Source of the DNA: a virus
Taxonomy: Duplodnaviria; Heunggongvirae; Uroviricota; Caudoviricetes
DNA: 27,901 nt
Reading direction: 5' to 3' (one strand)
IMG/VR virus record: IMGVR_UViG_2684622620_000012
Position numbers and translations under genes: made by a program
Notes under the pieces: generated by a model
Told to the model about the DNA's origin: nothing
Databases searched by the model: none
Seen by the model: only the letters and a program-made list of their open reading frames with translations
Shown here: positions 1 through 21,855 of the stretch, in pieces
How positions within the stretch are numbered: position 1 is the stretch's first letter
Layout: each line of letters opens with the position of its first letter

Positions 1-255
1 ATGAACACTAAGGTGAAAGAAGCAGTAAAATGTTGGGCTTCTAGTCCAACGTGGTTTAGCAGGCATCCAATGGATACGGCGGAGTTCCGACGGGCTGTTT
101 CAAATCTCAAGCGCATTACCCCTACCCCATCTTTCGAAGAAATCAAAGAAGCGATCATGTTCTTTGTTTCCGATGCGCCGACAATGCTAGGTACGCCGTC
201 GGATATTCCTCAGGCGGTTCATGACTTCGCTGGAAAAATTTATAACAAGCTGTGA
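1..255 (+). CDS. hypothetical protein, 84 aa
   Basis: ATG at base 1, stop TGA 253-255, followed by a hairpin at 263-281. No motif recognised. May be the C-terminal part of a longer gene if the window edge cuts it. Confidence 0.4.
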   Translation: MNTKVKEAVKCWASSPTWFSRHPMDTAEFRRAVSNLKRITPTPSFEEIKEAIMFFVSDAPTMLGTPSDIPQAVHDFAGKIYNKL

Positions 256-262
256 GCAAAAT

Positions 263-281
263 GCGGGCTATCCCAGCCCGC
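263..281. terminator. hairpin GCGGGCT-ATCCC-AGCCCGC between convergent ORFs
   Basis: Perfect 7 bp inverted repeat with 5 nt loop; on the minus strand it is followed by ATTTTG. Sits between the stops of 1..255 (+) and 290..493 (-). Confidence 0.4.
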
Positions 282-289
282 ATCCCTAA

Positions 290-493
290 TTAACGCCGTA
301 ACTTGTTTGGCTTCGTCCATTGGTACGCCTTTTCGTTTTCCCGCCGCTGGTGGCGTTCCTGTTGCAGCACAACGGAAACAGGCGCTGAACACCTGTTAAT
401 TTTGCTTGCTGGTTGTTTGATTCCGGCAATGCTGCGGATCATCTCCAGCATATCGGCTTCGGTGATGGTCATAGGTTTCCTATCAGCACTCAT
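290..493 (-). CDS. hypothetical small protein, about 67 aa
   Basis: Track ORF 290..499 opens with TTG; first ATG is at 493. No clear Shine-Dalgarno. A plus-strand ORF 303..503 competes. Confidence 0.3.
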   Translation of the reverse strand: MSADRKPMTITEADMLEMIRSIAGIKQPASKINRCSAPVSVVLQQERHQRRENEKAYQWTKPNKLRR

Positions 494-521
494 ATCCAAT
501 TAATAAGTTCAATACAATGGA

Positions 522-1106
522 TTATCCCGTTTTAGTGACTAACCATTGCAGAATAACGATAATTAAATATGTTAATGTGCCAGTTCCAAGAAGTATTAAT
601 AATTGATAGCAACGTAGGGCAATATTACTAATCGATTTTTGCATCACGATATTCACTGGCTCAGCCACACACTCTTTAGATCTTATCGATAGAATACTTG
701 GAACTTCTCTATTTATTGATAATATTTCACATTGAATAGACTCACTAGGTGCAAGGCTTTCAAACTTGATAATATAGCGACCATCCTGTTCAATATTTTC
801 TTCAAAATGGTGGACAGGCCAAAAATTAATATGCATTGGCTTATAGTTAAAAACCAATGATATATTAGTAGCACTTTCTCGCCCTTCATTAACAAGAATA
901 ATAGATCGTGTATACACCAACTGTGAATTAGATATTACCTCACCATTAGCATTCCGTAAGGGTTCATTGAGAAGAAAAGTAAATCCATGCTGATAACCAT
1001 AGGATAACTTTGCCTTGCTTTTAAATCTGTTATTCAGTATCCATGTTAAAATCGCTATAAAAAAAGAAAATAGTTCTTTCCCATAAAGATTAAAAAAACT
1101 CATCAC
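522..1106 (-). CDS. membrane protein with N- and C-terminal transmembrane helices, 194 aa
   Basis: Hydrophobic helices FSFFIAILTWIL (N-term) and LLILLGTGTLTYLIIVILQWLV (C-term) flank a ~140 aa soluble region. GTG at 1106 and ATG at 1103, with AAGGAAA upstream. Markedly AT-rich compared with neighbours. Confidence 0.6.
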   Translation of the reverse strand: MMSFFNLYGKELFSFFIAILTWILNNRFKSKAKLSYGYQHGFTFLLNEPLRNANGEVISNSQLVYTRSIILVNEGRESATNISLVFNYKPMHINFWPVHHFEENIEQDGRYIIKFESLAPSESIQCEILSINREVPSILSIRSKECVAEPVNIVMQKSISNIALRCYQLLILLGTGTLTYLIIVILQWLVTKTG

Positions 1107-1225
1107 ACATTTCCTTCAGTAATCTGATTCTGCTGTCAAAGTTACCAGCACTATAGTCATTCATCCACATTGCGACAAGAAGGTTACAGCACGTTCAATC
1201 ACACCTTAGGAAATCTTAGGGGGCT

Positions 1226-1499
1226 GGTTGACACTTTCCGGCTTAAGACCTTAATAAATCTTAATATCGCAGGTTGACACACTTGACACTTTTTCGGGAA
1301 AAACCTTAACAAAACTTAACCATCCCTGGCATTTCTAAGCATGGCAACTTGACACTTTTCGCGATTTTTTCGGTTTTTTGACGTGGTGAATATGGTACAA
1401 GGCCAGTAATGGCGCGGCTTCCAGCAAGGTTGACACTTTTTCGCGTTCAGAGTGTAAAGTGTCAACCTGGCAAGCTGCTCAACTTGACACTTTTTGAGG
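1226..1499. repeat. array of six direct and one inverted copy of GGTTGACACTTTT(CG) (iteron-like)
   Basis: Direct copies at about 1226-1239, 1272-1280, 1281-1298, 1345-1363, 1426-1445 and 1481-1499; inverted copy AAAGTGTCAACC at 1457-1468. Second motif CTTAA(T/C)AAA(A/T)CTTAA occurs twice at 1248-1266 and 1305-1320. Confidence 0.7.
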
Positions 1500-2027
1500 T
1501 CATTGATGGCCTGATTTTTCCCATTCAGCCAGGGCGTTTAGTCCTGCCTCACTCCATGTGTCCTGTTCATCGGGACAATCGCTGGCAACATAGCATAGTT
1601 CACAACGCAGCATATGAATTGCCAGCCAGGCATTACCCCGCAAATTGTATTGTTCAAAGTAATGCTGTCCTTCATCATCCTCAAGGCAGATAGCACCATC
1701 ATCAAGAAAGTGCACTTCCCAGCCTAATTCCCCGGCTGCATTCAGCACACGCTGCCGTATGTCATCGTCCGTTACTGGCGCAGGGATTTTACCGTCTCTG
1801 GCCTTAACTGCTTTCCAGAACTCGCCCCACGTCATTTCCAGCGTTCTCTCTGGCCACATTTCAGAAACGGTGTCTTTCCCCTGTGCTGGTGGGCTGTTCC
1901 GCTGATCTGTCGCATCCACATCAATTTTTTTGCCAGACATGATCACTTCGCCTTTCTCGATCCAGTCGTAAACTGTCTGGCGGCTTACGCCTTTGTATTT
2001 GGCGTATTCGGCTTTACTCATCAACAT
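1500..2027 (-). CDS. DNA-binding protein with N-terminal helix-turn-helix (MerR/excisionase-like), about 175 aa
   Basis: N-terminal SKAEYAKYKGVSRQTVYDWIEKGEV resembles HTH_17/excisionase-type motifs. GAGGTGA sits 5 nt upstream of the ATG at 2027; the track ATG at 2045 lacks an SD. Confidence 0.6.
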   Translation of the reverse strand: MLMSKAEYAKYKGVSRQTVYDWIEKGEVIMSGKKIDVDATDQRNSPPAQGKDTVSEMWPERTLEMTWGEFWKAVKARDGKIPAPVTDDDIRQRVLNAAGELGWEVHFLDDGAICLEDDEGQHYFEQYNLRGNAWLAIHMLRCELCYVASDCPDEQDTWSEAGLNALAEWEKSGHQ

Positions 2028-2127
2028 GTAGCTCACCTCATGCATATACGATAAAAAAATAATTTCATGCGGAAAGGGAATGCGTTGTGGGTATGGAGGA
2101 AAGGGGCAATAACCGCCCCTTACTGAT

Positions 2128-2400
2128 TCAGTTGCGCCAGGATGGCTGGCTAAGCGTGGTTTTCATTACATCATTGACGACCTGTTTTACGATTTCTGTG
2201 TTGGCAGTCGTGCTTTCAACATCAACAAAGCCATAATCGCCAATTTCCACCGTCAGGGATTCCAGTTTCTTCCCTAGAGCATCAGGCAACTCTCCACTGA
2301 ACCGGTGCTGAAGATTTTCCACCAGCAACGCCCTGAATGCCTCGCTGTTCTCTTTTTTCTGCCATAGCTGGCGTTTATCCACTCTGATATTTAATTTCAC
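2128..2400 (-). CDS. hypothetical protein, 90 aa
   Basis: GTG start with strong SD AAGAGGTGA 5 nt upstream; start overlaps the stop of the upstream gene (GTGA), suggesting translational coupling. Confidence 0.55.
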   Translation of the reverse strand: MKLNIRVDKRQLWQKKENSEAFRALLVENLQHRFSGELPDALGKKLESLTVEIGDYGFVDVESTTANTEIVKQVVNDVMKTTLSQPSWRN

Positions 2401-2564
2401 AGTCTCACCTCTTTAAGTGCCTTATCCATCAGTTGCCGAGCGATAACATGAATCGACGGTGCCACACCAAGCACAGATTTCTGACGCTCTTCGTCCTGGA
2501 TGCGTTGCAGGGCTTCGATCTGCCTCCGGGAAAGTAAAACTGGCTTTACTCCGTGATTTTTCAT
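2397..2564 (-). CDS. small putative ribbon-helix-helix-like DNA-binding protein, 55 aa
   Basis: MKNHGVKPVLLSRRQIEALQRIQ...: short beta-strand-like N-terminus followed by two predicted helices. ATG at 2564; stop overlaps the downstream GTG start. Fold assignment is tentative. Confidence 0.45.
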   Translation of the reverse strand: MKNHGVKPVLLSRRQIEALQRIQDEERQKSVLGVAPSIHVIARQLMDKALKEVRL

Positions 2565-2842
2565 GATGATCCCTTCTGAATGACAATAATTGCAATTATT
2601 GCACAAATTGAAATGATACCAGAGACAATTGCAATAAATGAAACGAAAAGCATCAATAAACCAACCTTCGGCACTGAATGCTCTGATTTTTCTGCAAAGG
2701 TATGGCAGATGTTGGTGCATGCAAACATAAAGGCAATAGCAGAAGAAACAGCGGGGAGTGAAAAGGGGAAGTTTTTATAAATACACGATTGTCGCCTCAC
2801 TGCAGGTTAACAGCCACAAGCTCCATGATAATAACTTGTTAA

Positions 2843-3166
2843 TTATTTCATCAGATTTTTCATTATTTGCGCGATTGAGTACACAAGCAAAAACTCGGCA
2901 GCCGCAAGAGTATAAAAAACATAAATTCGCTTAGCCCACCGACGATGAAAGAACTCCTCAGCATGGCCGGATGTTCGAGATACAAGCCATGCACCTACTG
3001 CACACAGAGCAGGTGCAATGAGCACAGTTATAAACCAGATTGTGATGCCCATCCCATACCTACTGATAATAGCCATTGGTATTGCAAAAATGAATGTTAG
3101 AGCAGCATTAGCTAATAGAATATCTTTTAAAGTATTTTCAATTAGTTTTTCTAGATTATCTTTCAT
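2843..3166 (-). CDS. small integral membrane protein, 107 aa
   Basis: Three hydrophobic segments (e.g. ILLANAALTFIFAIPMAII, ITIWFITVLIAPALCAVGAWLV); ATG at 3166 preceded by a G-rich SD; AT-rich. Confidence 0.6.
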   Translation of the reverse strand: MKDNLEKLIENTLKDILLANAALTFIFAIPMAIISRYGMGITIWFITVLIAPALCAVGAWLVSRTSGHAEEFFHRRWAKRIYVFYTLAAAEFLLVYSIAQIMKNLMK

Positions 3167-3196
3167 CTAATCCCCCCCGTTGAACATTAATATATA

Positions 3197-3219
3197 AAAG
3201 CCCCTTACTAAGGGGCTTT
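3197..3219. terminator. perfect hairpin AAAGCCCCTTA/TAAGGGGCTTT between lipoprotein and membrane protein genes
   Basis: 11 bp inverted repeat with A-run upstream and T-rich sequence downstream on the minus strand; sits just after the lipoprotein stop at 3231. Confidence 0.55.
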
Positions 3220-3230
3220 GCACGGATTGT

Positions 3231-4373
3231 TTAAAGGGAACTTTTTTTCGCCCCTTCAATTTCTGCCTGACAAATTTCGTCATTTGTAAATGAGTACTGC
3301 AAATAGACATATCCCTGAGTGGAATTGTTCGCTCTGGCCTCAATATATATAGTATCAATATTGTTTTTTAATGGTATTTCTTTTGTTCCCTTCCATGTGG
3401 CAGATAAGAAGCGTTCTTTTTTGTTTAGCCCCCTCATCCAGTCCTGAGGATCTTTCCAAATTGAACCAGCCAGCAAAAAGTCTGTAGTATCAGCCTTTCC
3501 ATACAGAGAACTTAAAGAATTACTCAATTCTTCAAACTTGGATTTAAGAGCCAATCCATAGCTATCAGTATCAATATTTTTTCCTAAAGCCCGTATTTGA
3601 CATAAACCAGCTTTCGGGGAGATCAACAAACCATACATTTCAAAATCTGCGTTTTGCTTCGGTAATTTATCAGAAGTATACAGATTCACACTGTCTGGTA
3701 GTGGCTTGAGCTTAGCACCGATCATATCTTCGATGTTTTTCTGTGTAAGACCGGCTTCTAAGCCAAACGGACCATCCGCTGGCGGGAGTAAAGGAAGTTG
3801 CTCTTGGGAATTTTTGGCTGTTACTTCCGTTTCAGTACTGTTTTTTGCGTCATTATCTTGTACTGATGCCAGCTTAACTTCAGCGAGGCCATACTTGGCT
3901 GTGAGGTACTTTTGCTGCAACATTGCCATGGTCTGCTCTTCAGTGGCAACAGTAGATAATTTTAGTACCTTTATCAGACCACCACTATACTGACGAGCAT
4001 CAGCTTTGGCTTCGTTGATTTTTGCATCTAAGCTGTCAATTTCAGTTTTAATTGAAGCCGCAAGCTCAGGATCAGGTTTTACTCCAGATACAACAACATC
4101 AATTTTGGCGCCTGATTCAATAGCATTAATACGCTGTTCCAAAAGCGCTTTATTAGTTCCTAATATTTCCAGTCTTGCTGTTGTCAGATTTTTTATCAAC
4201 CCACCAGAAAACTGCTGGTCAACTTCCTTAGCTGCTGATATTTCACCTTCCGTTTGCGACAGTTCAGCTTTAAGAGCCGCTACTTCCTGTTTCTGTTCTG
4301 GAGTTAACTCTTCTGGCCCACATCCGGTTAACATTACTATACCGACTAATGTTGCAATTAAAGTTTTATTCAT
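3231..4373 (-). CDS. lipoprotein with coiled-coil-like internal repeats, 380 aa
   Basis: Signal peptide plus lipobox (MNKTLIATLVGIVMLTGC); an internal ~40 aa segment is duplicated (QQFSGGLIKNLTTARLEILG... and RQYSGGLIKVLKLSTVATEE); ATG at 4373; AT-rich. Confidence 0.75.
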   Translation of the reverse strand: MNKTLIATLVGIVMLTGCGPEELTPEQKQEVAALKAELSQTEGEISAAKEVDQQFSGGLIKNLTTARLEILGTNKALLEQRINAIESGAKIDVVVSGVKPDPELAASIKTEIDSLDAKINEAKADARQYSGGLIKVLKLSTVATEEQTMAMLQQKYLTAKYGLAEVKLASVQDNDAKNSTETEVTAKNSQEQLPLLPPADGPFGLEAGLTQKNIEDMIGAKLKPLPDSVNLYTSDKLPKQNADFEMYGLLISPKAGLCQIRALGKNIDTDSYGLALKSKFEELSNSLSSLYGKADTTDFLLAGSIWKDPQDWMRGLNKKERFLSATWKGTKEIPLKNNIDTIYIEARANNSTQGYVYLQYSFTNDEICQAEIEGAKKSSL

Positions 4374-4507
4374 ATCCCTATTCCAAATGAAAATATTCAG
4401 ATTAATCGTATCAGGAACCCAGATGCAATTGAATATTCATCTGCTCAGCAACGTAGTAGATTTCCTCAGAAAGCATCAACAAAAAACCAAGAGAATCCCA
4501 TCCTCTG

Positions 4508-4795
4508 TTACTGACTACAATTGTTCTTTTTTTGGTATTTCCTGAATGCCTCACCATTGGGCTGATGTAATCCCATCCCGACATGTGCCCGGCTGATGGT
4601 TTTGCGCATCTCCCCGAAATTATCCTGCCTTGCTGGTGGGCGTGCTGCCTTGTGGATACATTCCGCGCGACGTTTTGCCGCCTGTTCCCGTGCCTTGTCA
4701 TCATTCGCCAGCATGATGACCTCAGCCCACCGAGCCGCCGCTCTCCGGTACAGACCACGCGCTTCCAGTGCTTCCGCTTTGCTGTCGTGAATCAT
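4508..4795 (-). CDS. PerC-like transcriptional regulator (tentative), 95 aa
   Basis: N-terminal SKAEALEARGLYRRAAARWAEVIM resembles the conserved N-terminus of PerC/Pch-type regulators as I recall it; start overlaps the FinO-like stop (ATGA). Confidence 0.45.
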   Translation of the reverse strand: MIHDSKAEALEARGLYRRAAARWAEVIMLANDDKAREQAAKRRAECIHKAARPPARQDNFGEMRKTISRAHVGMGLHQPNGEAFRKYQKKNNCSQ

Positions 4796-5370
4796 GCGCC
4801 TGTTTTCTCCTTTGCTGCCCGGCGCTGACGTTTGCGCTTCTCATTCAGCGCCACCAGCCGCGTTTCTGCGTCCTGTTGTTCCTGTGGTGTCACCTCGCCG
4901 CACGGCTGGCCTTTCAGGTCGTAGCGTACCCCACCAGCCATTAAGGCGCGGTAATAGCGCGGACACTGCGCATAAGATGCCAGCGTCGCACGTAATGCCC
5001 CTGGCCCGAATGCCAGCCCCCTGACGGCGAGATTCTGCATCAGGTCGTCAAATATTCCCACCTTAAGCGGCTTCGGTGCTTCCCGGTTGAATAATTCAGG
5101 CCACAACTCAGTAAGGCGGTTAACGCGCCTGCGATTTTTGCGCTGGCGTTTGGTCATATGCCGCCACGATGTCGCCCCTGTGAGCTTCTGCTGCGCTTTC
5201 TGGTTACCGAGCATCACTTTATGCGCCGATGGGGTTTTATCCTGCTCCTGTGCCGCCTGCGTCGTTTTCTGCGGCGTGCCGTAAATGCCTTTCGGTTTTC
5301 TGTTAATGGTCAGCTTAGTCATGCTTTGCCCCATCGTTTTTACTGATTGTTTCATGCCCGGTACTTTCAT
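4792..5370 (-). CDS. FinO/ProQ-domain RNA-binding protein with basic N-terminal extension, 192 aa
   Basis: C-terminal half (LTELWPELFN...PLKVGIFDDLMQNL...LRATLASYAQCPRYYRALMAGGVRYDLKGQPCGEV) aligns by eye with the ProQ N-terminal/FinO domain of E. coli ProQ. Start uncertain: no good SD at any in-frame ATG. Confidence 0.75.
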   Translation of the reverse strand: MKVPGMKQSVKTMGQSMTKLTINRKPKGIYGTPQKTTQAAQEQDKTPSAHKVMLGNQKAQQKLTGATSWRHMTKRQRKNRRRVNRLTELWPELFNREAPKPLKVGIFDDLMQNLAVRGLAFGPGALRATLASYAQCPRYYRALMAGGVRYDLKGQPCGEVTPQEQQDAETRLVALNEKRKRQRRAAKEKTGA

Positions 5371-5399
5371 CTACCATCAACGTCAAAACTACGAAACGG

Positions 5400-5674
5400 G
5401 ATGCATTCATATAGATGCGCTGAACGTATACTGCAATAATGGCTGGGTGGAAATCGACAAAAACATCGCCGAAAACGCCTAACGTGGTGTGGCAGTGGGC
5501 CGGAAAAACTGGTTGTTCGCAGGTTCCAACAGCGGTGGCGAACATACTGCGGTGCTGTACTTGCTGATCGGCACGTGCCGTCTGAACAAGGAGGAGCCAG
5601 AAAAATGGTTGCGTTACGTCATTGAGCATATCCCGGACTGGACGGCAAACCGGGTACGTGATCTGTTGTCCTAG
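5400..5674 (+). pseudogene. IS66-family transposase, C-terminal remnant with in-frame stop
   Basis: GWVEIDKNIAENA*RGVAVGRKNWLFAGSNSGGEHTAVLYLLIGTCRLN... matches the conserved IS66 TnpC C-terminus (EIDNN...GRKNWLF...); TAA at 5480-5482 interrupts the frame; only ~90 codons of a ~500 aa transposase are present. Confidence 0.65.
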
Positions 5675-5962
5675 AAAGCCGATCTAACCGGGCAATAAAT
5701 ATCAAAACGGTTTTGGCGAGCCGCTTGCATCTCAACAAAACAATTGATATTTAAATAATAAAAATACATACACTACAATAAGTTAAATTATGAGGTTATA
5801 TTGGGGATACTTCACATAAAGAGTTATGATGACCCCGGATAACTTTATCGAAAGTACCGATGATAATCTAAGTTAACAATGAGTTTCAGTTTTTCGATTC
5901 ATACATGACATGGCTTGCACTATGTAAGTGATTAATTATTAATATTATTTTACGCATAATCG

Positions 5963-5990
5963 AGAAGGGGGCGCTTAAGTACCCCCAAAC
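5963..5990. repeat. AAGGGGGCGCT + CTTAAGTACCCCCAAA motif, shared with the integrase upstream region
   Basis: AAGTACCCCCAA (5977-5988) recurs exactly at 16276-16287; CTTAAGTACCCC(C)AAA recurs inverted at 16299-16314; AAGGGGCGCT recurs at 16333-16342. Also forms a local hairpin (GGGGG...CCCCC) just 3' of the peptidase gene. Confidence 0.4.
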
Positions 5991-5992
5991 TT

Positions 5993-6889
5993 TTAGATAT
6001 GCCGAATAAAGGATTGGTTATTAGAGCCTTCAATAAGCTTAACTGTAGGAGTGTTGAAAAGGGTTTGTGTACAACAGTGATGTACTGTAAGAACTGCGTC
6101 CTGAAACTGGGGATGGTCTTCAAGCTGAGTGATCCGCAAACCTAATTCAATGGCTCTCTCTGCGTGGATATGCCGAGAATGATCCTTCGTATCCGTACGA
6201 TTGTTTAAGCTTTTGACAATCGCAGTGGCGAGTTCGCTACGCCGAGGTTCAGGTAAATCTTTAAGCATTCCATTTTTTAACCATTCAGTAACCAAATCAT
6301 CGGCAAGCTGAATAGCTTTGCTAGCTGTATCAAAAATGGTAGGTGGGTAGCGCGAGATGATTGTTTGCCAAATCGGGAGGCTGGAAGGTTCTTTTTGAAT
6401 GCTATCAATAGCATTTTTTAACTCTTCCAAAATACCATAAGCTGAAAGACCACCAAAGATATGAGGATCAAAAGGTCCGATACTTGAATGATGCCCCATT
6501 ACAATTTCTTTGCAGGCACACGCAATCATTGTTCCTGCAGACATGCTCATTTGAGGAACAATGGCCCGAATATCACCATTAAAAAGCTTTTTAAGGTAGT
6601 AAACCAGAGACTCAGCCGCAGTTATAGAACCACCAGGGGTATGCAAGAAAAGGTCTAAGCCTTTCGTTCTATCCATTCCGTTAACAACAGCCATGAAACC
6701 ATTTTTGTCATCATCATTGATGCTGACATGCTGATGATTACCGTTATGTAAAAAGTCTGTGTAGTAACATATTACGTTTCTATCAGTACTGTCACTCAAA
6801 GCTTTTATGTACTTACGGCGGACAATATCAAAGCGAGAATCGTCTTGGAGGCTTTGGATTTCCTCCAAGACTTGGGCCAGATTGGGCAT
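5993..6889 (-). CDS. ClpP/crotonase-fold serine peptidase (S49/SDH-like family), 298 aa
   Basis: [20 protein letters not shown]...[23 protein letters not shown] matches the TPGG...SAGT nucleophile region of ClpP/SppA/serine-dehydrogenase-type proteases; AAGGA sits 8 nt upstream of the ATG; AT-rich. Confidence 0.65.
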
Positions 6890-6907
6890 GGGATGGTAAC
6901 GTCCTTG

Positions 6908-7132
6908 TTAAGCTTTTGTAGTGGTGCTTACATGCAAAGTTGAGTAGCCAGTTGTTCTGGTAGAACACTTAAGCTTAGTCATCTCATGTTGATGAGAAAA
7001 ACTTGCAACACCGCTTAAGCCGCCGAACTCATGGCTCATTGCGCCAAATTGTTGTGGGAACTGGATACCTGAAGTATTTGATGCCACAAGTCCCGTTTCC
7101 AAGAGAATTTTTTCGTAATTGATTTCAGCCAT
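6908..7132 (-). CDS. small hypothetical protein, 74 aa, upstream partner of the peptidase
   Basis: ATG at 7132 with GGAG 8 nt upstream; stops 18 bp before the peptidase start. S/T/G-rich with no recognised motif. Confidence 0.4.
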   Translation of the reverse strand: MAEINYEKILLETGLVASNTSGIQFPQQFGAMSHEFGGLSGVASFSHQHEMTKLKCSTRTTGYSTLHVSTTTKA

Positions 7133-7210
7133 GTTAGTACTCCGCTAAATGTAGTGCTTGCGTCAATGCTTCGACACTACATGTTGTTTTTATAGTTCTT
7201 TTTAGACAGA

Positions 7211-7244
7211 AAAACCCCGCTGTCTGGCGAGGTTTTATTTTTCT
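7211..7244. terminator. hairpin AAAACCCCGC...GCGAGGTTTT with flanking T-runs
   Basis: ~10 bp imperfect stem with loop TGTCTG, followed by TTTATTTTTC on plus and TTTTTC on minus; separates the helicase-fragment region from the peptidase operon. Confidence 0.35.
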
Positions 7245-7379
7245 TATGCTGATAATAGCAGCAATTATAAGAAGTCAAAGTCTTTTTATGTAAATTTTAA
7301 GCTGTTAGGGGTGATTTTTCTCTAACTTGTTGATTCGTTCTCAAGCTAAGTCATGTTTTAAGAGCGGCAACTGCACTAA

Positions 7380-8274
7380 TAACCTGCCCGTTCTCAGACA
7401 TGATTCGTGAAAATGCGAGACGTTTCAGCTGCTCCATATCGAGTCCAGGAGCCCGTAGTAATGCATCAGACAGTTCCTGCTACTTTCCGCTGTACATCGA
7501 CAGCAGCATTTTCCTGACTGCTGCGCTCGAACCTACCGAATGCCTGAACATCATCAGATGCCAGTGGTTTAACCGGTGAGAATCTGTTCATCAGATAATC
7601 GAGAATGTTTGCAGTCTGCTTGCTTACGGCAGACACACCACGAGTAAAGGATTTAAGCGTGTCCAGATTCCACCCGCTCTGCGGTTTTTTGCCTGTTCGT
7701 TAAAATCCGGATCGTTGCGGATAACGTCAAGCAATTCTGCCTCTACTTCTGCCCGCTGCGCCATGACGCGTAGGTTAGTCAGTTCGCCGACCATGCCGCA
7801 GAATAAAGCATCCATCTGAGTATTTGGCGCAGCAACCTTACCGGCATAATCCACCAGCATTCCCACGCAATCAGCTAGCCGCTTCAGGTGGTCACAGAAG
7901 GCGTACAGCTTTACCTCCAGTGCCTCTTTGCTGTTCCGTTTCCTCAGCAGCAGCGCCCGCTCTTTTTCCGGGGTCCTTATCTTCCTCACTGACGCGACAG
8001 TTAAACTGGAAAATAACACGGCGACGGGCAACGCTTCCGGCGTGTTCGGTAAAAATCATCGGCGTATTATTCGTGGCCACAACCACCGCCCGGCATATTC
8101 TGTAAAACTTACGCTCTGTCCCTGTCGCATCCAGTGCGCAATCATGATCAGAGTTCTGGTAAAGCGGTGAATATCGCCGCATAGTCCACATGATGTCGCA
8201 AAACTTTTCAGCTCTTCACGCTCTATGTAAGTCATACCCTGAGGTATGTAACGTTCTGTTTTCATTTTTAACAT
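7380..8274 (-). pseudogene. decayed C-terminal fragment of a D5/P4-alpha-type (SF3) primase-helicase
   Basis: Three broken ORFs (8056..8274, 7892..8191, 7624..8031). The middle one carries VVVATNNTPMIFTEHAGSVARRRVIFQFN, resembling SF3 helicase motif C plus the downstream RR...F segment of D5/P4 primases. No Walker A/B upstream; frame changes and an in-frame stop present. Confidence 0.4.
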
Positions 8275-8280
8275 TCCTGA

Positions 8281-8680
8281 TTTTTTAATTCCTCACCTGC
8301 TGCGCAGTGAGAATTTATGAAGTTAATAACAATATGATTTTAAATATATTTTTAAGCACTCACTTTTTAATCCTTATATATACGCAAAAGTGAGGTAAAT
8401 AGTTAAGTTTTAGTTAATATCTTGCATGGTATGTTTTTTAACCTACCTGTTATTTTTATTACCTCATTTCTATTAACTCACCATTCCTCACTTTTGTTCC
8501 TCACTTTTTGTTATTCTTGTTCTGCTCCTCAGTCGTTTTCTTTATTGTTGTAATATGTTGTTTTGCAATGTTTTTTTAATTCCTCATTTTTTGATCTATA
8601 TACAGGTGAGAAAGTGAGGAAAACAGGGATGATTTTTAAATATTCCCTTCCCCCCTCACTTTTACGCTTCACTTTTTACA
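8281..8680. repeat. iteron-rich AT-rich region (more than 10 copies of TTCCTCACTTTT in both orientations), candidate origin
   Basis: Copies at about 8291, 8358, 8388 (inv), 8461, 8477, 8486, 8499, 8581, 8606-8620 (inv pair), 8653, 8668; exact 15-mer TTTTTTAATTCCTCA at 8281-8295 and 8573-8587; lies immediately 3' of the helicase gene. Confidence 0.6.
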
Positions 8681-10088
8681 GTGGGCGCACATCATCACCG
8701 TCAATAGCGATTACGCCGTCACCTTCCAGCTTGTACAGCCAGCGCCGGAAGTTTTTCATCTCATACCCCAGCTTTTTCATGTCATCGCGCAACAACGGAA
8801 TAGTACATTTATCTCCGCGTTGCGTGCGTGAACGAATACAACCCCATAGTGCGGCGTGATTCTCCGTCTTGTTCCCAGCTTCCTCGATGCGCTCCAGTTC
8901 AACCGGCGGACGGGGCTTATCCTCCAGCACCAGCGACGTGATTAACTCCCCGCCCTCATCCTTGAAAAGCTCAACCTCGCGCAAATCGCAAGCCATTTCT
9001 TTCAGTTCCTCCGCATCCTTCATCTTGGTACATGCGATAACCAGGGCTTCACTGCCTGCACCTTCACGGCGTATCCGGTATTCTGCATCCAGTGCTGCAC
9101 GAAACGCACTGGAACCGCGCGCACCCTTTGTTTCATCCTTGCCGGAATGGTGAATTACCAGCACTGTAGCGCCTGTACGTCGTTTCAGTTCGTCACATCC
9201 ATGGACAAATGCCCCCATATCCCGCGCATCATTTTCATCGCTGCCACCAAAGCAACGCGCCAGAGTATCCAGAATAATCATGCGTACAGGTTTACCCGTT
9301 TCCTGCTCAACCTGTCGGGCAGCAATAACCATTTCATCAACATCACCCGGTGCGGCCGGAAAAATTGGACGATTTACCAGGTATAGATTTTTCACCTGCT
9401 CACTGTTCACCAGTTCCCATGCCTTGATACGACGAGGAACACCGATCCCGCCCTCACCAACGACATACATCACCGCACCATGTACAACCCTGCGACCTCC
9501 CCACGGGATACCGGTAGCAACATGACACGCCCACGAACACGCAAGGAACGACTTATAAGAACCGCTCGCACCGTATGTGCTACATAGCGAATTAGCCGGA
9601 ATCACGCCCTTAACTACATAGCTAAGCTGTGAATCATATCCTTCCGATCCAATGCTCATTGGTAGCGTGGTTTTTCGCTGGCTGTATTGCTCGTCAGTAA
9701 GTATTTCCCCGCGCTCAGCCTGTTCGCGGATCCGTTGCAGGTAGTCGTGCCAGTTCTCCGGCTCCCCGTCGGTGATACCTTTGTATAATTTCGCCTCCTG
9801 TACGCCAGCCAGCGCCAGCTTTTCAGCGATAGCATTGATCTGGATTGGTTCGATCTCCCCCGCGAGATAGACACGCGCAAAGCGGCGTTCATCGTCGACA
9901 ATGCGGATATTCGCCAGGTCTGCCAGTTGCTTTGGCCCCAGGTAAACAGGTGGTACGTTATCGCCGTGTTTTCGTCCTTCGCTTTCAATCCAGTGTTGAG
10001 CATGGGCGTAAGCATCCGTCCCGGCAAAAATGATTACCTCGGTGAATTTATCCTTCGGCTGATATTTTAAATTCGGTGCGTTTTTCAC
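8676..10088 (-). CDS. RecA-like NTPase, RepA/DnaB-type replicative helicase (AAA_25-like), 470 aa
   Basis: P-loop YGASGSYKS, Walker B-like MIILDTLARCF, and VLVIHHSGKDETKGARGSSAF typical of RepA/DnaB-family helicases; GTG start with GGGAGGT 6 nt upstream, overlapping the upstream stop. Confidence 0.7.
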   Translation of the reverse strand: MKNAPNLKYQPKDKFTEVIIFAGTDAYAHAQHWIESEGRKHGDNVPPVYLGPKQLADLANIRIVDDERRFARVYLAGEIEPIQINAIAEKLALAGVQEAKLYKGITDGEPENWHDYLQRIREQAERGEILTDEQYSQRKTTLPMSIGSEGYDSQLSYVVKGVIPANSLCSTYGASGSYKSFLACSWACHVATGIPWGGRRVVHGAVMYVVGEGGIGVPRRIKAWELVNSEQVKNLYLVNRPIFPAAPGDVDEMVIAARQVEQETGKPVRMIILDTLARCFGGSDENDARDMGAFVHGCDELKRRTGATVLVIHHSGKDETKGARGSSAFRAALDAEYRIRREGAGSEALVIACTKMKDAEELKEMACDLREVELFKDEGGELITSLVLEDKPRPPVELERIEEAGNKTENHAALWGCIRSRTQRGDKCTIPLLRDDMKKLGYEMKNFRRWLYKLEGDGVIAIDGDDVRPL

Positions 10089-10375
10089 TTCTTACCTCCC
10101 GCAACCAACATTGCCCGGATTTTTTTAATATTCGTGGCTGCACGTCTCGCCACCGCCTGTTGTTTGTTTTCAACCAGAATAAAATCACGCTCAAACTGAC
10201 GGCGCGGCATTACGCAGTCATATTCGTAAGCCTCACGGCGGTAGGTGATATTGCCTGGCGTAACGTGACGAATAACCACTCGTCCCCCACGTCTGGTGTC
10301 GCGGTAAATATCTCCGTGTCTGATTTCAGGCCGAGAGAGACCGCTGGCAGTAAAGCCAGAATTTTTCTTTTTCAT
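10085..10375 (-). CDS. hypothetical basic protein, 96 aa
   Basis: Member of a chain of tightly packed minus-strand small genes; stop overlaps the helicase GTG start. Confidence 0.5.
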   Translation of the reverse strand: MKKKNSGFTASGLSRPEIRHGDIYRDTRRGGRVVIRHVTPGNITYRREAYEYDCVMPRRQFERDFILVENKQQAVARRAATNIKKIRAMLVAGGKK

Positions 10376-10379
10376 GGTT

Positions 10380-10580
10380 TTATTTTCCTGTCAGCAGTTC
10401 CGGTTTTATTTCCGCACGAATACAAAGTTCAGAAAAAAATTCAGGAGAACCAACAATCTCATTACTTTTCAGTCGGCATTGTGATTTCACTTTCCCTTTA
10501 TCTAGGTAAACCAGTACGCGTCCGGTGAAATCATCTGGCACATTAAGCACTACGGGTACATGCGCTTCATGATTATGCAT
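10380..10580 (-). CDS. hypothetical protein, 66 aa
   Basis: Start overlaps the upstream gene stop; no recognised motif. Confidence 0.45.
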   Translation of the reverse strand: MHNHEAHVPVVLNVPDDFTGRVLVYLDKGKVKSQCRLKSNEIVGSPEFFSELCIRAEIKPELLTGK

Positions 10581-10806
10581 GGCTTACATCCTCCGTGAAT
10601 TTTCTTCTGTAACGCGTCTCTGCCACATATTCCGCATAGTCTGACGCAATACTAAGAATCATTTCACCCTCTGACTTGTAGCCACTGGTATTGATAAGAA
10701 AATATGCAGCTTTCATCATGTCAGCAACGCTCAACAATGCGCCCGCTGCATCTTCCTGTGCGCCATCAAATTCCCGTTTCAGGGAATTAAAACGATCATC
10801 ACGCAT
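10573..10806 (-). CDS. hypothetical acidic protein, 77 aa
   Basis: Start overlaps the upstream stop; no recognised motif. Confidence 0.45.
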   Translation of the reverse strand: MRDDRFNSLKREFDGAQEDAAGALLSVADMMKAAYFLINTSGYKSEGEMILSIASDYAEYVAETRYRRKFTEDVSHA

Positions 10807-11164
10807 GTTTACCCCCCTGAATGACCTGATAACCGCAACTGGTCAGCAACTCGATAAATTCCGGCAGTGTGCCGAAACAGCAATCATCACGCAGCCGTTC
10901 GCAGGATACCTCGACGCCGTTTTCGTAGTGACTCACCATACGTCCGGTAAAATGCAGATCATCATCGTGATGACTCGTTGACGGCTTAATCAGTCGCGCA
11001 CGTTCCGCCAGTTCCAGCAATGCTTCAACGCTTCCGGCAATTGCACCATCCGGCAGGTGATAATTACGCACTATGCGCCCGTTCTCCACATTGACCAGCA
11101 ACTGCCCGGTAAATTTCTCGTCAAACTGAATGCTGTTAAGGTCAGAAATTGACAGGTTATGCAT
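10799..11164 (-). CDS. hypothetical protein, about 121 aa
   Basis: ATG at 11164 with AGGAGG upstream, 2 nt after the upstream stop; the track ORF extends to 11182 without an RBS. Confidence 0.5.
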   Translation of the reverse strand: MHNLSISDLNSIQFDEKFTGQLLVNVENGRIVRNYHLPDGAIAGSVEALLELAERARLIKPSTSHHDDDLHFTGRMVSHYENGVEVSCERLRDDCCFGTLPEFIELLTSCGYQVIQGGKHA

Positions 11165-11381
11165 AGTGCACCTCCTGCACATCAGCCATGATAATTTTTC
11201 CGGCCTTATCCAGTGCCTGATCGGCTTTTAGCTGCACAAATGCTAAATAATGGAAGATGCATTCTGATTCTCTGGCTGCGTGTTTATGCGCCACACCAGC
11301 GATAGCAGAAATCTCAATAAGTGAATCCATCAGCGTTTTGATAGTGTCTACCGCTGCATCAGGCCATGTTGCATTACACAT
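11157..11381 (-). CDS. hypothetical protein, 74 aa
   Basis: ATG at 11381 overlaps the stop of the upstream gene. Confidence 0.45.
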   Translation of the reverse strand: MCNATWPDAAVDTIKTLMDSLIEISAIAGVAHKHAARESECIFHYLAFVQLKADQALDKAGKIIMADVQEVHYA

Positions 11382-11739
11382 GCTCCACCTCCTGGCGAAT
11401 ACGGGCAGTGAATACCATCACGCAGCCATCAGGAGATTGCTGGCGTGCTTCCTGTTCGCTGGTGGCCTCGATGTGAATCACGCGCGGTTGTGCCGTACTC
11501 AGGGCGATAAAACGCCATATAAAATTGTTTTCGCATTTCTGAATAAACAGCGTGTTTTCTTCGCGCCCTTTCCATGTTGCCGAGATATAGCCCATGTCAT
11601 TGAGCATCTTGCAGGCATCAACCAGCGTATCGGCGGCTACGTGTACAGTGTTTTTACCGTCAGCCATGCAATCACGGTGCACCGCCAGGAAGGTGTATAT
11701 AAATTTAGGGTGAGTTTGAGTATGCTGTGTTCCAGCCAT
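11374..11739 (-). CDS. hypothetical protein, 121 aa, first gene of the early operon
   Basis: ATG at 11739 with GAGGT 7 nt upstream; the track ORF runs on upstream to 12831 in the same frame, but that upstream part looks non-coding or frameshifted. Confidence 0.5.
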   Translation of the reverse strand: MAGTQHTQTHPKFIYTFLAVHRDCMADGKNTVHVAADTLVDACKMLNDMGYISATWKGREENTLFIQKCENNFIWRFIALSTAQPRVIHIEATSEQEARQQSPDGCVMVFTARIRQEVEHV

Positions 11740-11813
11740 AATCGTTACCTCATTTAACGGTTTGGTTAGACGCCCTGCATGTGTTGCGAGCACTGCGGGG
11801 CGTTGCTCTTTTA

Positions 11814-11861
11814 GGTGTATTTCACCTTTGCTTTTTAATTTACTTACTGGTGAAATACACT
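11814..11861. promoter_or_regulatory. operator-like inverted repeat GGTGTATTTCACC ... GGTGAAATACAC(T) in a divergent promoter region
   Basis: 12/13 bp inverted repeat separated by 22 bp, between the early operon start (11739) and the divergent RHH gene (11927); TATACT -10-like hexamer at 11891-11896. Confidence 0.5.
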
Positions 11862-11926
11862 TCAAGCCTTTTTTTATCATTTTTTTTGCGTATACTGACA
11901 TACACCAATTTTTAGGAGATCCAGAA

Positions 11927-12106
11927 ATGGCAACTGGTGCAAAGAACGCAAAATCACAAATGACAACTGTCAGAATCCCACATGAAGTAATGGATGATAT
12001 TGAGCAACTTAAAGAACCTGGCGAAAGTACCGCTGGTTTTTTAGTTACTGCTGCAAAAGGCGAGATCAAACGCCGCCAGCGCCGCAAGGCCAAAGAACAG
12101 GAGTAA
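11927..12106 (+). CDS. small ribbon-helix-helix-like regulator, 59 aa
   Basis: AGGAGAT SD 6 nt upstream of the ATG; MTTVRIPHEVMDDIEQL fits an RHH beta-strand plus helix; divergent from the early operon; basic C-terminal tail. Confidence 0.5.
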   Translation: MATGAKNAKSQMTTVRIPHEVMDDIEQLKEPGESTAGFLVTAAKGEIKRRQRRKAKEQE

Positions 12107-12823
12107 CCATCACCAGCGCCGTGGTGTGAGGGACTACGGTGCATCGTTTTACAGGGCAGCGCCATGACCAACAAAGAATCAACCAATACACCATCACCGG
12201 CACGGAAAAGACAGCGCAGAAAGATAGCGTACGAGCATGAGTCAAACAGATTCGCGCCCTGTGCGTTTATCCTTGAGAAATTCCTTAAAGAGTACAGGCG
12301 CACAAAAATGGGATCGCATACCTGGAAAACATCGCGGCATGGCGATGTTAAAGAGCAGGAATAGCCCACCAGCAAGCCAGCATATTCACCATAATGACCC
12401 TCAGTTAAACATAGAGTCATTGGTGCAAAGCTGACACATTGCCCACCAGCCGCAAATCTGGCATTGTTGGCGATGCGTTCAAGTATGTAGCTTTCCCACT
12501 GGCGGCCCTCTGCGGTCGCCTTTGTTTTATCCAGAACGAAATCAGACATCAGATTGATCAGCACCTGGCGACCTGACAAAATCGCATCAGTCGCGCCACC
12601 AGCAAAATTTTTTGCTTTTCGGACAGTGTGATCAACGACATTTTGCAGCAAAATATTCTGCATTTCTGGCGTGCTGTAGTAACGGTGATCAGCGCCTTCA
12701 CTCTGTGCGACCACAACGCTATAATCTGCCTCGTAGACAGTAAGCAATATGGCGCAGTAGGCTATTCGTTCACAAAGGCGCTCCGGCAACGGGGCGCTTT
12801 CTCTTTTTGTAACGGTCAGAGCG

Positions 12824-13624
12824 TTACACATGGCTGTTTTCCTCCATGCGACGGGCTAACCAACGCTGCGAAAGACGAATTAATTCAGCCTTCCGCTGGT
12901 GGTAGTCCTGGCCTAACTCAATCAGCGTGATATTGCTCTGCTCAAGGTAAGAAAGGTGCTCAAGCTGCAACGTGCTCATGTGGTCGCGTGGTTCGCCTGT
13001 AATGCCGTTCGCCAGTGCCCACTGTTTTGCAGTCATGCCACCCAGCACGATACGCGCCAGCATGCTCGCTTCCGTGGTGTAGTGGTGCTGGAGTGTGTTT
13101 TTACCCAGTTCAGCCCGGTACGCCTCCAGCGCGGCACACATTGGCTTAAAGTAGCTGGCAACTGTGATACGGGCTTTCAGTTCCCGGCGTAACGCTGCGG
13201 AACGAACAGGCGCAACCTTGTGTAGCTCCTCCTCGCATTTGATAAAGTACTGGCGAACGGCGCGGCCCTGTTCGGTACGTTCGACCATCGCCAGTTCTTT
13301 CGCCATGTTCACTGTGATGATGTACTCAAGAGCGGTTTGCTGGCGAGATTTTGCGCTCACCGGATCGGGTCGGCTCAAATATTCAACAACCTCATAATCC
13401 ACGCCTTCCGTGAACCCGTATTCTTCAATGCGCCCCTTGATCCACGAACGGAAAACGCGCCCTACACCTAACGCCTTATGTAACGCTCTGGCGCTAACAA
13501 TAGTGGTTTCACTCCCGCCAATAACGCCGGAAATAATCGGGATAATTTCGCCGAAATTTTGCAGATTCTGGTTTTCAGGCCGAACGAAGCCCCGCCCCTG
13601 TACGGGCGTTTTTGGAAATTTCAT
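12824..13624 (-). CDS. phage antirepressor-like protein (AntA-type N-terminal domain), 266 aa
   Basis: TTIVSARALHKALGVGRVFRSWIKGRIEEYGFTEGVDYEV resembles the AntA/AntB antirepressor N-terminal domain; downstream of alpA on the same strand. Confidence 0.6.
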   Translation of the reverse strand: MKFPKTPVQGRGFVRPENQNLQNFGEIIPIISGVIGGSETTIVSARALHKALGVGRVFRSWIKGRIEEYGFTEGVDYEVVEYLSRPDPVSAKSRQQTALEYIITVNMAKELAMVERTEQGRAVRQYFIKCEEELHKVAPVRSAALRRELKARITVASYFKPMCAALEAYRAELGKNTLQHHYTTEASMLARIVLGGMTAKQWALANGITGEPRDHMSTLQLEHLSYLEQSNITLIELGQDYHQRKAELIRLSQRWLARRMEENSHV

Positions 13625-13701
13625 AAAAACTCCTGCTATCGAATTAAGTTACTTTTATTTGCTGGTGGATAGCTGGGGGCAATAGCCCCGTAGCCATTTA
13701 A

Positions 13702-13899
13702 TCAGGTAGCTGTTCCGCGTGATTCCGCAATACGCTGATTAATCCACTCGTCAATTTCACTCTCAACGAAAGCAATAGCTCGCGAGCCAATTTTAACTGA
13801 TGCAGGAAATTTACCTTGCCCCATAAGGCGATAAATCCATGCCTTGCTATATCCAGTTCTACGCTGAACTTCTGTTAAACGAATAAGCGTATTTGACAT
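13702..13899 (-). CDS. alpA: AlpA-family transcriptional regulator, 65 aa
   Basis: LIRLTEVQRRTGYSKAWIYRLMGQGKFPASVKIGSRAIAFVESEIDEWI is a close match to the AlpA (CP4-57 regulatory protein) HTH signature. Confidence 0.85.
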   Translation of the reverse strand: MSNTLIRLTEVQRRTGYSKAWIYRLMGQGKFPASVKIGSRAIAFVESEIDEWINQRIAESRGTAT

Positions 13900-14093
13900 A
13901 TATTTACCTCATAACGTCTACTCAATTTGACGAGGTAATCATGGCACAGAAATAACGAATATTTTCATACCCTCAGGCCTAATGGTTACCGGAAGGAAAT
14001 TAACCCTAAGGGTGATGGTAAAATTGACGGGGAAGATAAAAAAATACCCTCAGGGTAACAGTAAATCACCCTCAGGGTATGCGGTATGGTGCG

Positions 14094-14891
14094 TTAATCC
14101 GGCTTTGCGTTCTTTTGGCTGTTGTCTCGGTTAATAGGGCAGGCAGTCCTCTCTATGAGCGTTGCAAGTGCATTACTTGCCCCCCACTGCTTAAGCTCCC
14201 TAGTTATCGCTTCTTGATTTCCCCTGGTGGCAAAATCATTTTCTGGATCGTAATTGGCCCACTCTCTGTTTCTAATCTCAATAGCCTTAGCTAATGGGTC
14301 TTTATCCCAGTATTTATATAAGTGTATCGGGCGCTCTTGCTCTAACTGCTCTATCCTTGCCCTTAACTCTGCGTTTTCTTTTTCCAGCATTGCGATTTGG
14401 GATAATAAATCATCCTCTGTACGCAACTCTTTCTTTTCAATATCGCGTCCTTGTGCCTCGTCATTTTCAGAAGAGTTAGCGCCTTCCAGCTTCGTTAACG
14501 CGTCAAGGACATCGGGAAAAATTGCGAAAATTTCACCCCTTATAAATCCAATGTTCTCAAATTCGGGATCTTCCCAATAACCGGACACCAGAAAACCATT
14601 TTCATCCCTCTCACCAGGTAAACAACCACGTTTCCGAACCGCATTCAGATTTCTATAAAGAACATCATAATCAAATTCATCCCGATACGGGTTACAAAAA
14701 GATTCCAACAGCTTAAATTCATTTACTGTGTACAGGCGGATATGTTCTCCGCTTATTCTCCTGAGTATCCAAGTTATGACATCTGAAACATCATAATCAT
14801 CACCAGCGACCTTAAGCACGACCTCAAGAAATTCACGTAAAGAAATAAAATCTTTTTTGTATTCGTTTAATTCGGCATGAATATCAATCAT
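14094..14891 (-). CDS. hypothetical protein with central coiled coil, 265 aa; cargo gene between int and alpA
   Basis: ATG at 14891 with GAGGT 6 nt upstream; leucine-zipper-like segment LLSQIAMLEKENAELRARIEQLEQE; lower GC than flanking genes; no recognised catalytic motif. Confidence 0.6.
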   Translation of the reverse strand: MIDIHAELNEYKKDFISLREFLEVVLKVAGDDYDVSDVITWILRRISGEHIRLYTVNEFKLLESFCNPYRDEFDYDVLYRNLNAVRKRGCLPGERDENGFLVSGYWEDPEFENIGFIRGEIFAIFPDVLDALTKLEGANSSENDEAQGRDIEKKELRTEDDLLSQIAMLEKENAELRARIEQLEQERPIHLYKYWDKDPLAKAIEIRNREWANYDPENDFATRGNQEAITRELKQWGASNALATLIERTACPINRDNSQKNAKPD

Positions 14892-15019
14892 ACGCACACC
14901 TCAGCGTCCTCTACTGTAGTGGCTGTACCAGTCCGTCGAGGTGTACGGATTTTCGGGAGCGACCCTAGACACAGCCTTTTCTTTCGTCGCTCAAAGTCTA
15001 CTACTGTATACGCAACCAG

Positions 15020-16234: not shown

Positions 16235-16342
16235 TTGGGGGTACCTCCACTAAACCGAACAGCAAATACCCCCAAAAGTACCCCCAATTGACTGTAGATT
16301 TTGGGGTACTTAAGTAGACGTCAAAAGACTAAAAGGGGCGCT
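16234..16342. repeat. cluster of GTACCCCCAA / GGGGTAC motifs and AAGGGGCGCT upstream of the integrase
   Basis: TTGGGGGTACC (16235-16245, inverted), ATACCCCCAAAAGTACCCCCAA (16266-16287), TTTTGGGGTACTTAAG (16299-16314, inverted), AAAAGGGGCGCT (16331-16342); one copy each also at 5963-5990. Confidence 0.5.
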
Positions 16343-16562
16343 AACATGCGGATTATAAGAGGTTTTTAAATACTTGAGTAGACTTGGGGAGACGTTAGAA
16401 TGGTGCCGATAATAGGAGTAAAACACTCGATTAATCTCGTGTTAATGCCATCACCTACGACCATTACTAATTGATTGAATCTTATAGAAAAAATCATCAT
16501 TTTCTATGCGTTACAATCAATTTTCACATTACAAACGCTCCGACACTTTAGCCGGGGAGTTT

Positions 16563-17840: not shown

Positions 17841-17847
17841 ACGTAAT

Positions 17848-17880
17848 AAAGAGGCTTCAACATAGATTGGTAGCCTCTTT
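17848..17880. terminator. bidirectional hairpin AAAGAGGCT...AGCCTCTTT between convergent genes
   Basis: Perfect 9 bp inverted repeat with 15 nt loop and flanking A/T runs, in the 80 bp gap between the recombinase stop (17840) and the 17922..18635 gene stop. Confidence 0.55.
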
Positions 17881-17921
17881 TATAATTACATCGTTACAGA
17901 GCGTTTTAGAGGCGTTTACGG

Positions 17922-18635: not shown

Positions 18636-18669
18636 AATAATAATTTTCCTTGTAATGTTATGGCGGGAA

Positions 18670-20508: not shown

Positions 20509-20519
20509 TTAAAATCCCC

Positions 20520-20723
20520 TTAATCATTTTTACCACCTTCTTTACTTAAGAAATGGTGTAGAGCCTGATCAATACTCTCGTTTAATCTGAACATACGGGC
20601 TTTTACTCCTTCATATGGAACATCTAGGAGAGAACAGAGATATTTCAGATTTAACAAGCCTCTAGAATCATTAGCATCTAAATGTACGTGTACACCATTT
20701 TTTGATTTCAAAATCACTTCCAT
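20520..20723 (-). CDS. hypothetical small protein, 67 aa
   Basis: Strong SD GAGGTGA upstream of the ATG; 11 bp before the tape-measure-like gene. Confidence 0.5.
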   Translation of the reverse strand: MEVILKSKNGVHVHLDANDSRGLLNLKYLCSLLDVPYEGVKARMFRLNESIDQALHHFLSKEGGKND

Positions 20724-20753
20724 ATTTTAATCACCTCTCAAAATTTAAAAAAA

Positions 20754-21837: not shown

Positions 21838-21855
21838 TTATTATTATTCCTTTTA

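Follow-up and report, generated by a model that had tools for sequence, protein, structure and literature searches.

The stretch of DNA analysed here, referred to below as the window, comprises 27,901 nucleotides (nt) of the IMG/VR virus record IMGVR_UViG_2684622620_000012 (Caudoviricetes) and carries, close to its first letter, a minus-strand gene for a protein of 193 amino acids (aa). The gene lies alone in a small cassette towards the integrase-distal end of an island of the EcCIMP1 type, and this cassette is a mobile, rare and constrained single gene for a membrane-anchored beta-sandwich protein. The features of the cassette are as follows, with positions counted in the window.

479 to 1200, no strand assigned: single-gene cassette of 722 bp, a presence/absence indel in the island family (from sister-island junctions)

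522 to 1103, minus strand: coding sequence of the 193-aa protein, stop codon included (from the list of open reading frames, RefSeq WP_054626966.1, homologue starts and the ratio of non-synonymous to synonymous substitution rates, dN/dS)

534 to 611, minus strand: C-terminal membrane helix, residues ~165-190, with near-invariant G173 and conserved Y179 (from hydropathy, AlphaFold and conservation periodicity)

681 to 1007, minus strand: beta-sandwich, residues 33-141, predicted cytoplasmic, with NxG..A (72-78), WP (95-96), LAPxE (117-121) and P135

1029 to 1079, minus strand: N-terminal membrane helix, residues ~9-25, short and weakly hydrophobic, after the conserved K9-E10 (from hydropathy, AlphaFold and alignments)

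1112 to 1116, minus strand: Shine-Dalgarno sequence AAGGA, 8 nt 5' of ATG 1103 (read from the sequence)

1150 to 1178, minus strand: candidate sigma-70-like promoter, TTGTCG-17 nt-TATAGT (consensus scan, 9 of 12 matches)

A minus-strand open reading frame (ORF) is present at 522-1106, where a preliminary description of the window, made from the letters and a list of ORFs, had placed a protein of 194 aa; the frame was retained and its start and length were revised. The alternative GTG start at 1106 would give 194 aa. In the alignment every homologue starts at the position of ATG 1103, and RefSeq WP_054626966.1, a hypothetical protein, comprises 582 nt and 193 aa, with the same span in the identical sequence of Escherichia coli UTAK-5 (window positions 1-2400 are 100% identical to this strain). 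For these reasons GTG 1106 is probably not the start, which most likely is ATG 1103. Pairwise comparison with three orthologues gave a dN/dS of 0.09-0.12 for 522-1103, and by this substitution pattern the gene is a genuine coding gene under purifying selection. Its AT-richness, already remarked on in the preliminary description, was confirmed: GC content was 32.5% in the gene (26% at third codon positions) versus 42.7% in the window and 47% in the flanks. Base composition, rarity and lack of annotation would also suit an ORF in AT-rich junk DNA that is decaying or has no function; this explanation was judged extremely improbable, being effectively refuted by a dN/dS of ~0.1, by conservation over the full length down to 25% identity in 578 sequence clusters and by a confident predicted fold.

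The limits of the cassette were read from sister islands. In those of E. coli ABU 83972 and F9792, from which the gene is absent, window positions 472-478 are joined straight to 1201, and the 722 bp thus defined contain the ORF, a ribosome-binding site, a promoter-like site and a 5' region of the cassette's own (97 bp). The entire cassette was present, in one copy each, in 15 of 5,426 complete E. coli genomes; about 15 of the 169 genomes with the backbone junction carried it, 74 had an empty site, and most of the remainder carried other cargo directly after an array of TTGACAC repeats described below. A scan of species-representative genomes, with the close alignment of the family as the query, returned one locus, in Escherichia ruysiae. 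Distinct base composition and presence or absence among otherwise collinear elements, here as a 722-bp indel, are features of phage morons, and the GC content of the gene was below that of its flanks in all 11 loci checked. Since promoter-like sites in the region were no more numerous than in shuffled sequences, the promoter candidate is weak on its own; its TATAGT -10 element is kept in the 5' region of a Citrobacter orthologue, the rest of whose leader has diverged. On the 3' side a hairpin followed by a T-run was recognized by eye in 4 of 10 homologue loci (a Hafnia island, two P2-like phages and a tail-module moron).

The protein was modelled with AlphaFold using a 12-sequence alignment (mean predicted local distance difference test score, pLDDT, 81). 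The model comprises a helix (2-27), a beta-sandwich (33-141, pLDDT 85-93), a poorly defined linker and a second helix (160-192), so that the middle domain of ~140 aa proposed earlier resolves into a folded sandwich of ~110 aa and a linker of ~20 aa. One transmembrane helix had been assigned to each end. The C-terminal one (residues ~165-190) is strongly hydrophobic, with a Kyte-Doolittle value of 2.16; an N-terminal one is likewise found, but it is weaker and short, with a value of 1.28 and 13-17 hydrophobic residues following K9-E10. Across the family, conservation is concentrated at turns of the sandwich (N72-x-G74, A78, N86, P89, W95-P96, R109, L117-A-P-x-E121, P135 and R141), G173 and Y179 fall on a single conserved face of the C-terminal helix according to the helical periodicity of conservation, and loops 46-62 and 99-106 and the linker vary between relatives. 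In 111 relatives lysine plus arginine averaged 5.4 in the segments adjacent to the sandwich versus 1.5 in the two short tails; the N-terminal tail is net acidic, and 99% of these relatives agree on the bias towards the sandwich side. Because the positive charges are concentrated where each helix borders the sandwich, the positive-inside rule predicts a cytoplasmic sandwich and two periplasmic termini, and only ~8 N-terminal and ~5 C-terminal residues would then be exposed to the periplasm. A periplasmic disulfide was considered as a further clue to topology and gained no support, as C125 and C145 did not co-vary by eye in a 27-sequence alignment.

Homology searches placed the protein in an undescribed family of small inner-membrane proteins. 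An exhaustive profile search returned 578 clusters at 50% identity with E<=1e-3, of which 339 had E<=1e-10; among the best 150 matches listed most were 180-210 aa long and aligned end to end, and most of the clusters sampled were metagenomic singletons. The query matched no Pfam-A, NCBIfam or PHROGs family at E<=0.1, nothing in PADLOC-DB v2.0 and no sequence in the PDB, and the 111 relatives gave only scattered chance-level matches in the same collections; in PADLOC-DB v2.0 one of the 111 matched PDC-M38B (E=0.003). The only recurring hints were TRAP_beta and CARDB, seen in 2-3 of the 111 relatives at E > 0.1 and not significant. Membership of a housekeeping membrane family, which had been named as a finding that would speak against the preliminary description, or of another known family was thus searched for with the query and its relatives and not found. 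Homology to described exclusion families (Imm, SieB and others) was likewise absent from Pfam and PHROGs, none of the newly named P4-hotspot systems (Bandua, Aernus, Toga, Reve, Crouga and Hailong) resembles the 193-aa protein, and a literature search by protein accession and phage name found no mention of it.

The surroundings of the cassette belong to the backbone of an island, of which four features are needed below.

290 to 472, minus strand: 60-aa backbone gene directly 3' of the gene for the 193-aa protein (annotated in UTAK-5, ABU 83972 and F9792)

1228 to 1493, plus strand: array of seven TTGACAC(TTT) repeats, six direct and one inverted, in the island backbone outside the cassette

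1500 to 2027, minus strand: DNA-binding protein of 175 aa whose N-terminal winged helix is of the Xis/TerS(gpNu1)/Rpp class

16408 to 16417, minus strand: attachment (att) core TCCTATTATC at the integrase-side end of the island, the sole occurrence in the window

In UTAK-5 the island is inserted at tRNA-Thr, with proA on one side and the pao/yagU region on the other (no tRNA gene was detected anywhere in the window), and it codes for an integrase, an AntA antirepressor, an Icd-like protein, a DUF4222 protein, an AAA_25 helicase, ProQ/FinO and PerC. Its att core sits exactly where homology to the islands of UTAK-5 and of avian pathogenic E. coli stops. EcCIMP1 is a phage-inducible chromosomal island (PICI) for which mobilisation by a helper phage has been demonstrated experimentally, and its att core is identical to TCCTATTATC (PMC11773190); the present island has the integration site of EcCIMP1 and shares several types of gene with it (integrase, antirepressor and PerC) (PMC11773190). 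Islands of the EcCIMP1 type share the host-element gene set integrase, AntA, DUF4222, AAA_25 helicase, ProQ and PerC, together with the att core. The gene content is that of a PICI, in that integrase, regulator, replication module and a defined att are present and structural genes are absent. Given the EcCIMP1 att core at the homology boundary, window positions 1-16417 are identified by sequence as an EcCIMP1-like PICI.

The integrase-distal end of this island type is, by its gene content, a defence hotspot, and the gene for the 193-aa protein is its first cargo gene, in a small slot of its own between the repeat array and the conserved 60-aa gene. PARIS (AriA/AriB) occupies the same end in the islands of O104:H4 C227-11 and Res13, bSEFIR lies in the hotspot of the Citrobacter island, and GapS1 lies in that of UTAK-5, just beyond the window; the 193-aa gene lies at the same integrase-distal end as these three immune cargoes. 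In further sister islands the hotspot contains a DUF4747 pair, a 662-aa protein with weak matches to proteins associated with prokaryotic Argonautes, and further pairs of unknown genes. Immune systems of PICIs have been located at their 5' or 3' ends (PMC11364771), the P4 hotspot adjoins cos (PMC9122126), and in P4 hotspots six of eight randomly chosen unknown loci gave protection against phage (PMC13586616). The 193-aa gene matches none of the immune systems reported from PICI and P4 hotspots. As a separate observation, PARIS stands directly after the TTGACAC array in E. coli O104:H4 C227-11, of the 2011 outbreak lineage (locus L017, 2646-4602; also L019).

The repeat-rich region mentioned in the preliminary description is real: six exact TTGACACTTT copies and one TTGACAC lie within 1228-1493 and none elsewhere in the window, a number far above chance. 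Transcription of the gene from this region, as had been proposed, was not upheld. The repeats belong to the backbone and not to the gene, as islands without the gene join window position 478 to 1201, and the cassette has its own 5' region and promoter-like site; the repeats were also rejected as the gene's promoter, being mostly on the opposite strand, with no promoter-like site called among them. Read-through into the gene from upstream may occur. Downstream, no minus-strand terminator-like site was found between 472 and 522, so that the 60-aa gene is possibly co-transcribed with the gene for the 193-aa protein; as a conserved partner it was discarded, since it is a backbone gene that is present in ABU 83972 and F9792 without the cassette.

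Related islands with the winged-helix gene have 5-8 copies of the repeat at the same place, and three PICI-like loci whose gene lists contain no winged-helix counterpart have no repeats there. The 175-aa protein probably binds the repeats, and the array is possibly a packaging-specificity (cosB/pac-like) or a regulatory site of the island. The winged helix belongs to the class of Xis, lambda gpNu1, RppC and Cox, a resemblance at the level of the class only; an Rpp homologue with a lambda-type cos was considered and rejected, as neither a sequence match to Rpp nor a lambda-type cosN was found. A role of the 193-aa protein in the life cycle of its carrier (lysis timing, packaging or helper exploitation) was considered because its gene adjoins this putative packaging-specificity module, with a DNA-binding gene of the TerS/Xis/Rpp class and its repeats; two-helix membrane proteins, moreover, include holins and antiholins. 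Such a role was judged improbable since most sister islands (~90% of those with the same backbone) do without the gene. It is also at odds with the presence of the family in full phages away from lysis cassettes and alone in a core genome, and with the occurrence of repeats and winged-helix gene where the 193-aa gene is absent.

Relatives were then located in about 16 genomic contexts, most of which are cargo sites of satellites or phages or integrase islets. The Citrobacter relative occupies the same slot of the same island. In Hafnia and in metagenome contigs P0010 and P0007 the relative is the last gene of a PICI-like island, before core genes, and in contig P0003 it stands at the end of an apparent insert beside torS, with the TTGACAC array also present. 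An Erwinia relative lies in a P4-like satellite, one relative is an opposite-strand moron inside a myophage tail module, and another stands beside an S24 repressor-like gene. Five P2-like phages, among them Yersinia phage vB_YenM_324, carry a homologue 3' of the last tail gene, near the att end. In vB_YenM_324 (locus L015, 27038-28809) the stretch from the last tail gene to the end of the genome contains two genes of nearly equal size (192 and 193 aa), of which only the second is a homologue. Integrase islets also carry relatives. In one of these islets, an integrase/resolvase islet (locus L006, 8001-9496), a homologue with 34% identity precedes a gene of the AbiJ_NTD4/Abi_C type by 9 bp. These two genes possibly form an operon, the sole context that hints at a partner. 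A conserved partner gene was rejected, as the immediate neighbours differ in every context inspected.

These contexts bear on the possibility that the protein is a non-defence accessory membrane protein riding in cargo slots, with a function in lysogenic conversion or fitness such as envelope physiology, transport or stress tolerance. Cargo regions do hold non-defence genes, as illustrated by PerC in this island type (PMC11773190) and by an ars operon beside the Citrobacter island; some homologues occur in contexts without phage or defence genes, and the family is not recognised by the defence database. The predominance of satellite or phage cargo positions and integrase islets among the contexts speaks against this, as do the defence systems that are the direct neighbours in the hotspot and the rarity and patchiness of the gene, which are typical of conflict genes. 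An accessory function of this kind was rated plausible, although rather unlikely.

An anti-phage role was inferred from genomic context, that is, from guilt by association, and all anti-phage readings together were given about an even chance. The 193-aa protein is a reasonable candidate phage-exclusion factor in this broad sense. The preliminary description had suggested an exclusion or abortive-infection role, and the context agrees with it (a PICI hotspot, and relatives that are solitary and AT-rich), whereas no match by homology or structure came to its aid.

Superinfection exclusion would mean that an inner-membrane protein passively blocks entry of the phage genome and the cell survives. 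Such a protein could disturb how ejection or tape-measure proteins insert, or it could cap the entry channel at its cytoplasmic exit. Classical exclusion factors such as T4 Imm, P22 SieA and HK97 gp15 are small inner-membrane proteins expressed by prophages and devoid of enzymatic domains. The 193-aa protein shares with these three its small size, membrane location, lack of a detected enzymatic or toxic domain and carriage by temperate phages, and with moron exclusion proteins a solitary AT-rich gene, a promoter-like site of its own and a relative in a tail module; this relative, on the opposite strand within a tail cluster, recalls HK97 gp15, and the homologue kept beside the att end by five P2-like phages points the same way. 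It differs from them in having no sequence similarity to any known exclusion protein and in a globular domain that is predicted to be cytoplasmic, unlike that of those exclusion proteins whose exposed domain is known to face outwards. By charge statistics almost nothing would be exposed to the periplasm, and carriage by elements with unrelated helpers and hosts speaks against a receptor-specific block. To our knowledge the arrangement helix-sandwich-helix has not been described for HK97 gp15, T4 Imm or P22 SieA. The probability assigned to exclusion was low, although not negligible.

A one-protein abortive-infection sensor-effector was slightly favoured over entry exclusion, because the sole globular domain is predicted to be cytoplasmic, there would be little periplasmic exposure and the helpers and hosts of the carriers are unrelated; this reading is tentative, with a probability well below even, and the two mechanisms are inseparable by computation. 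The resident element would express the 193-aa protein for the protection of its host. Recognition would be the task of the cytoplasmic sandwich, with loops that differ among relatives, and its target would be either a phage product or the genome-entry complex at its inner face. In response the helices would come together as a leak or pore, by way of the strongly hydrophobic C-terminal helix, one face of which carries the invariant glycine. A releasable latch might be provided by the weak N-terminal helix, and the loss of membrane potential would halt phage development.

The closest analogues of such a mechanism are Cap15 of CBASS (the cyclic-oligonucleotide-based anti-phage signalling system), S-2TMbeta and PycTM, membrane-disrupting effectors that combine transmembrane helices with a cytoplasmic beta-rich sensor. 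The logic appears similar, with a predicted cytoplasmic beta domain, two helices and no enzyme. In these effectors, however, the helices lie at one end, the signal is a nucleotide made by a partner, and the genes stand in operons, whereas in the 193-aa protein the helices flank the domain, no partner is conserved and no PADLOC model matches. Every homology-based test for membership of the moron exclusion proteins or of the membrane effectors failed. The turn motifs NxG...A and LAPxE are reminiscent of CARDB/DUF11 repeats; the Ig-like sandwiches of CARDB, TRAP-beta and carbohydrate-binding modules are extracytoplasmic, unlike the predicted placement here. Layout and compact cassette are unusual, and single-gene hotspot candidates are now common.

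Several observations weigh against an abortive-infection sensor-effector. Neither the trigger nor pore formation has direct support, and no sequence or structure links the protein to any known defence or exclusion protein. The sandwich matches generic folds only, no binding or catalytic site was evident, and the conserved residues of the sandwich look structural because they lie mostly at turns. The usual location of Ig/CARDB-like domains is outside the cytoplasm, which conflicts with the cytoplasmic placement derived from charge. Two contexts, one in the core genome of Serratia and one in a set of metagenome contigs, are without mobile-element or defence genes, and the slot used in the P2-like phages differs from the canonical gpA-gpQ hotspot. 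That the protein is the founding member of a new, widespread family of single-protein anti-phage systems (~580 clusters), with an Ig-like cytoplasmic sensor between two helices (a layout not known from earlier descriptions), a sense-and-permeabilise mode of action, an N-terminal latch and a 0.7-kb cassette shuttled by satellites and temperate phages, is possible but doubtful.

The remainder of the window was annotated as well. Positions 16418-27901 hold a second integrative element in tandem with the island. This element may be a satellite that forms capsids or else the remnant of a prophage, and it has the following features.

16506-17840, plus strand: integrase

17922-18635, minus strand: Dit-like tail protein

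18670-20508, minus strand: ORF of 612 aa with no Pfam or PADLOC match

20809-21837, minus strand: major capsid protein E

Within the island, the stretch separating the replication helicase from ProQ/PerC (5993-7132) codes for a ClpP-like serine protease of the SDH type (298 aa) and contains an ORF of 74 aa, with no match in PADLOC v2; a recent paper reportedly describes an additional PICI accessory region near the PICI pri gene, at roughly this position. Positions 2843-4373 hold two backbone genes that this island family conserves in E. coli and Citrobacter, one for a lipoprotein-like protein of 380 aa and the other for a multi-helix membrane protein of 107 aa; neither protein has a significant family match. 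Of window positions 3000-27901, just 77% is covered by the closest complete genome. An IS1 insertion and an IS66 fragment (IS, insertion sequence) present in UTAK-5 (locus L001, 25414-26378) are absent from the window at ~5400-5990; the window therefore derives from an IS1-free strain other than UTAK-5, in spite of the identity over 1-2400.

For islands of the EcCIMP1 type the analysis refines the map, in that PARIS, bSEFIR, GapS1 and unknown genes are swapped at the integrase-distal end, beside the winged-helix gene and the TTGACAC array; since this site holds defence systems, other unknown genes found there are good candidates too. If the 193-aa protein proves protective, a very small defence module of unusual layout (0.7 kb, one gene) would be added to those known, and it would offer a tractable model for the coupling of a membrane hairpin to a cytoplasmic recognition domain. 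If it shows no anti-phage phenotype, it would serve as a warning that a place in a hotspot does not by itself indicate defence.
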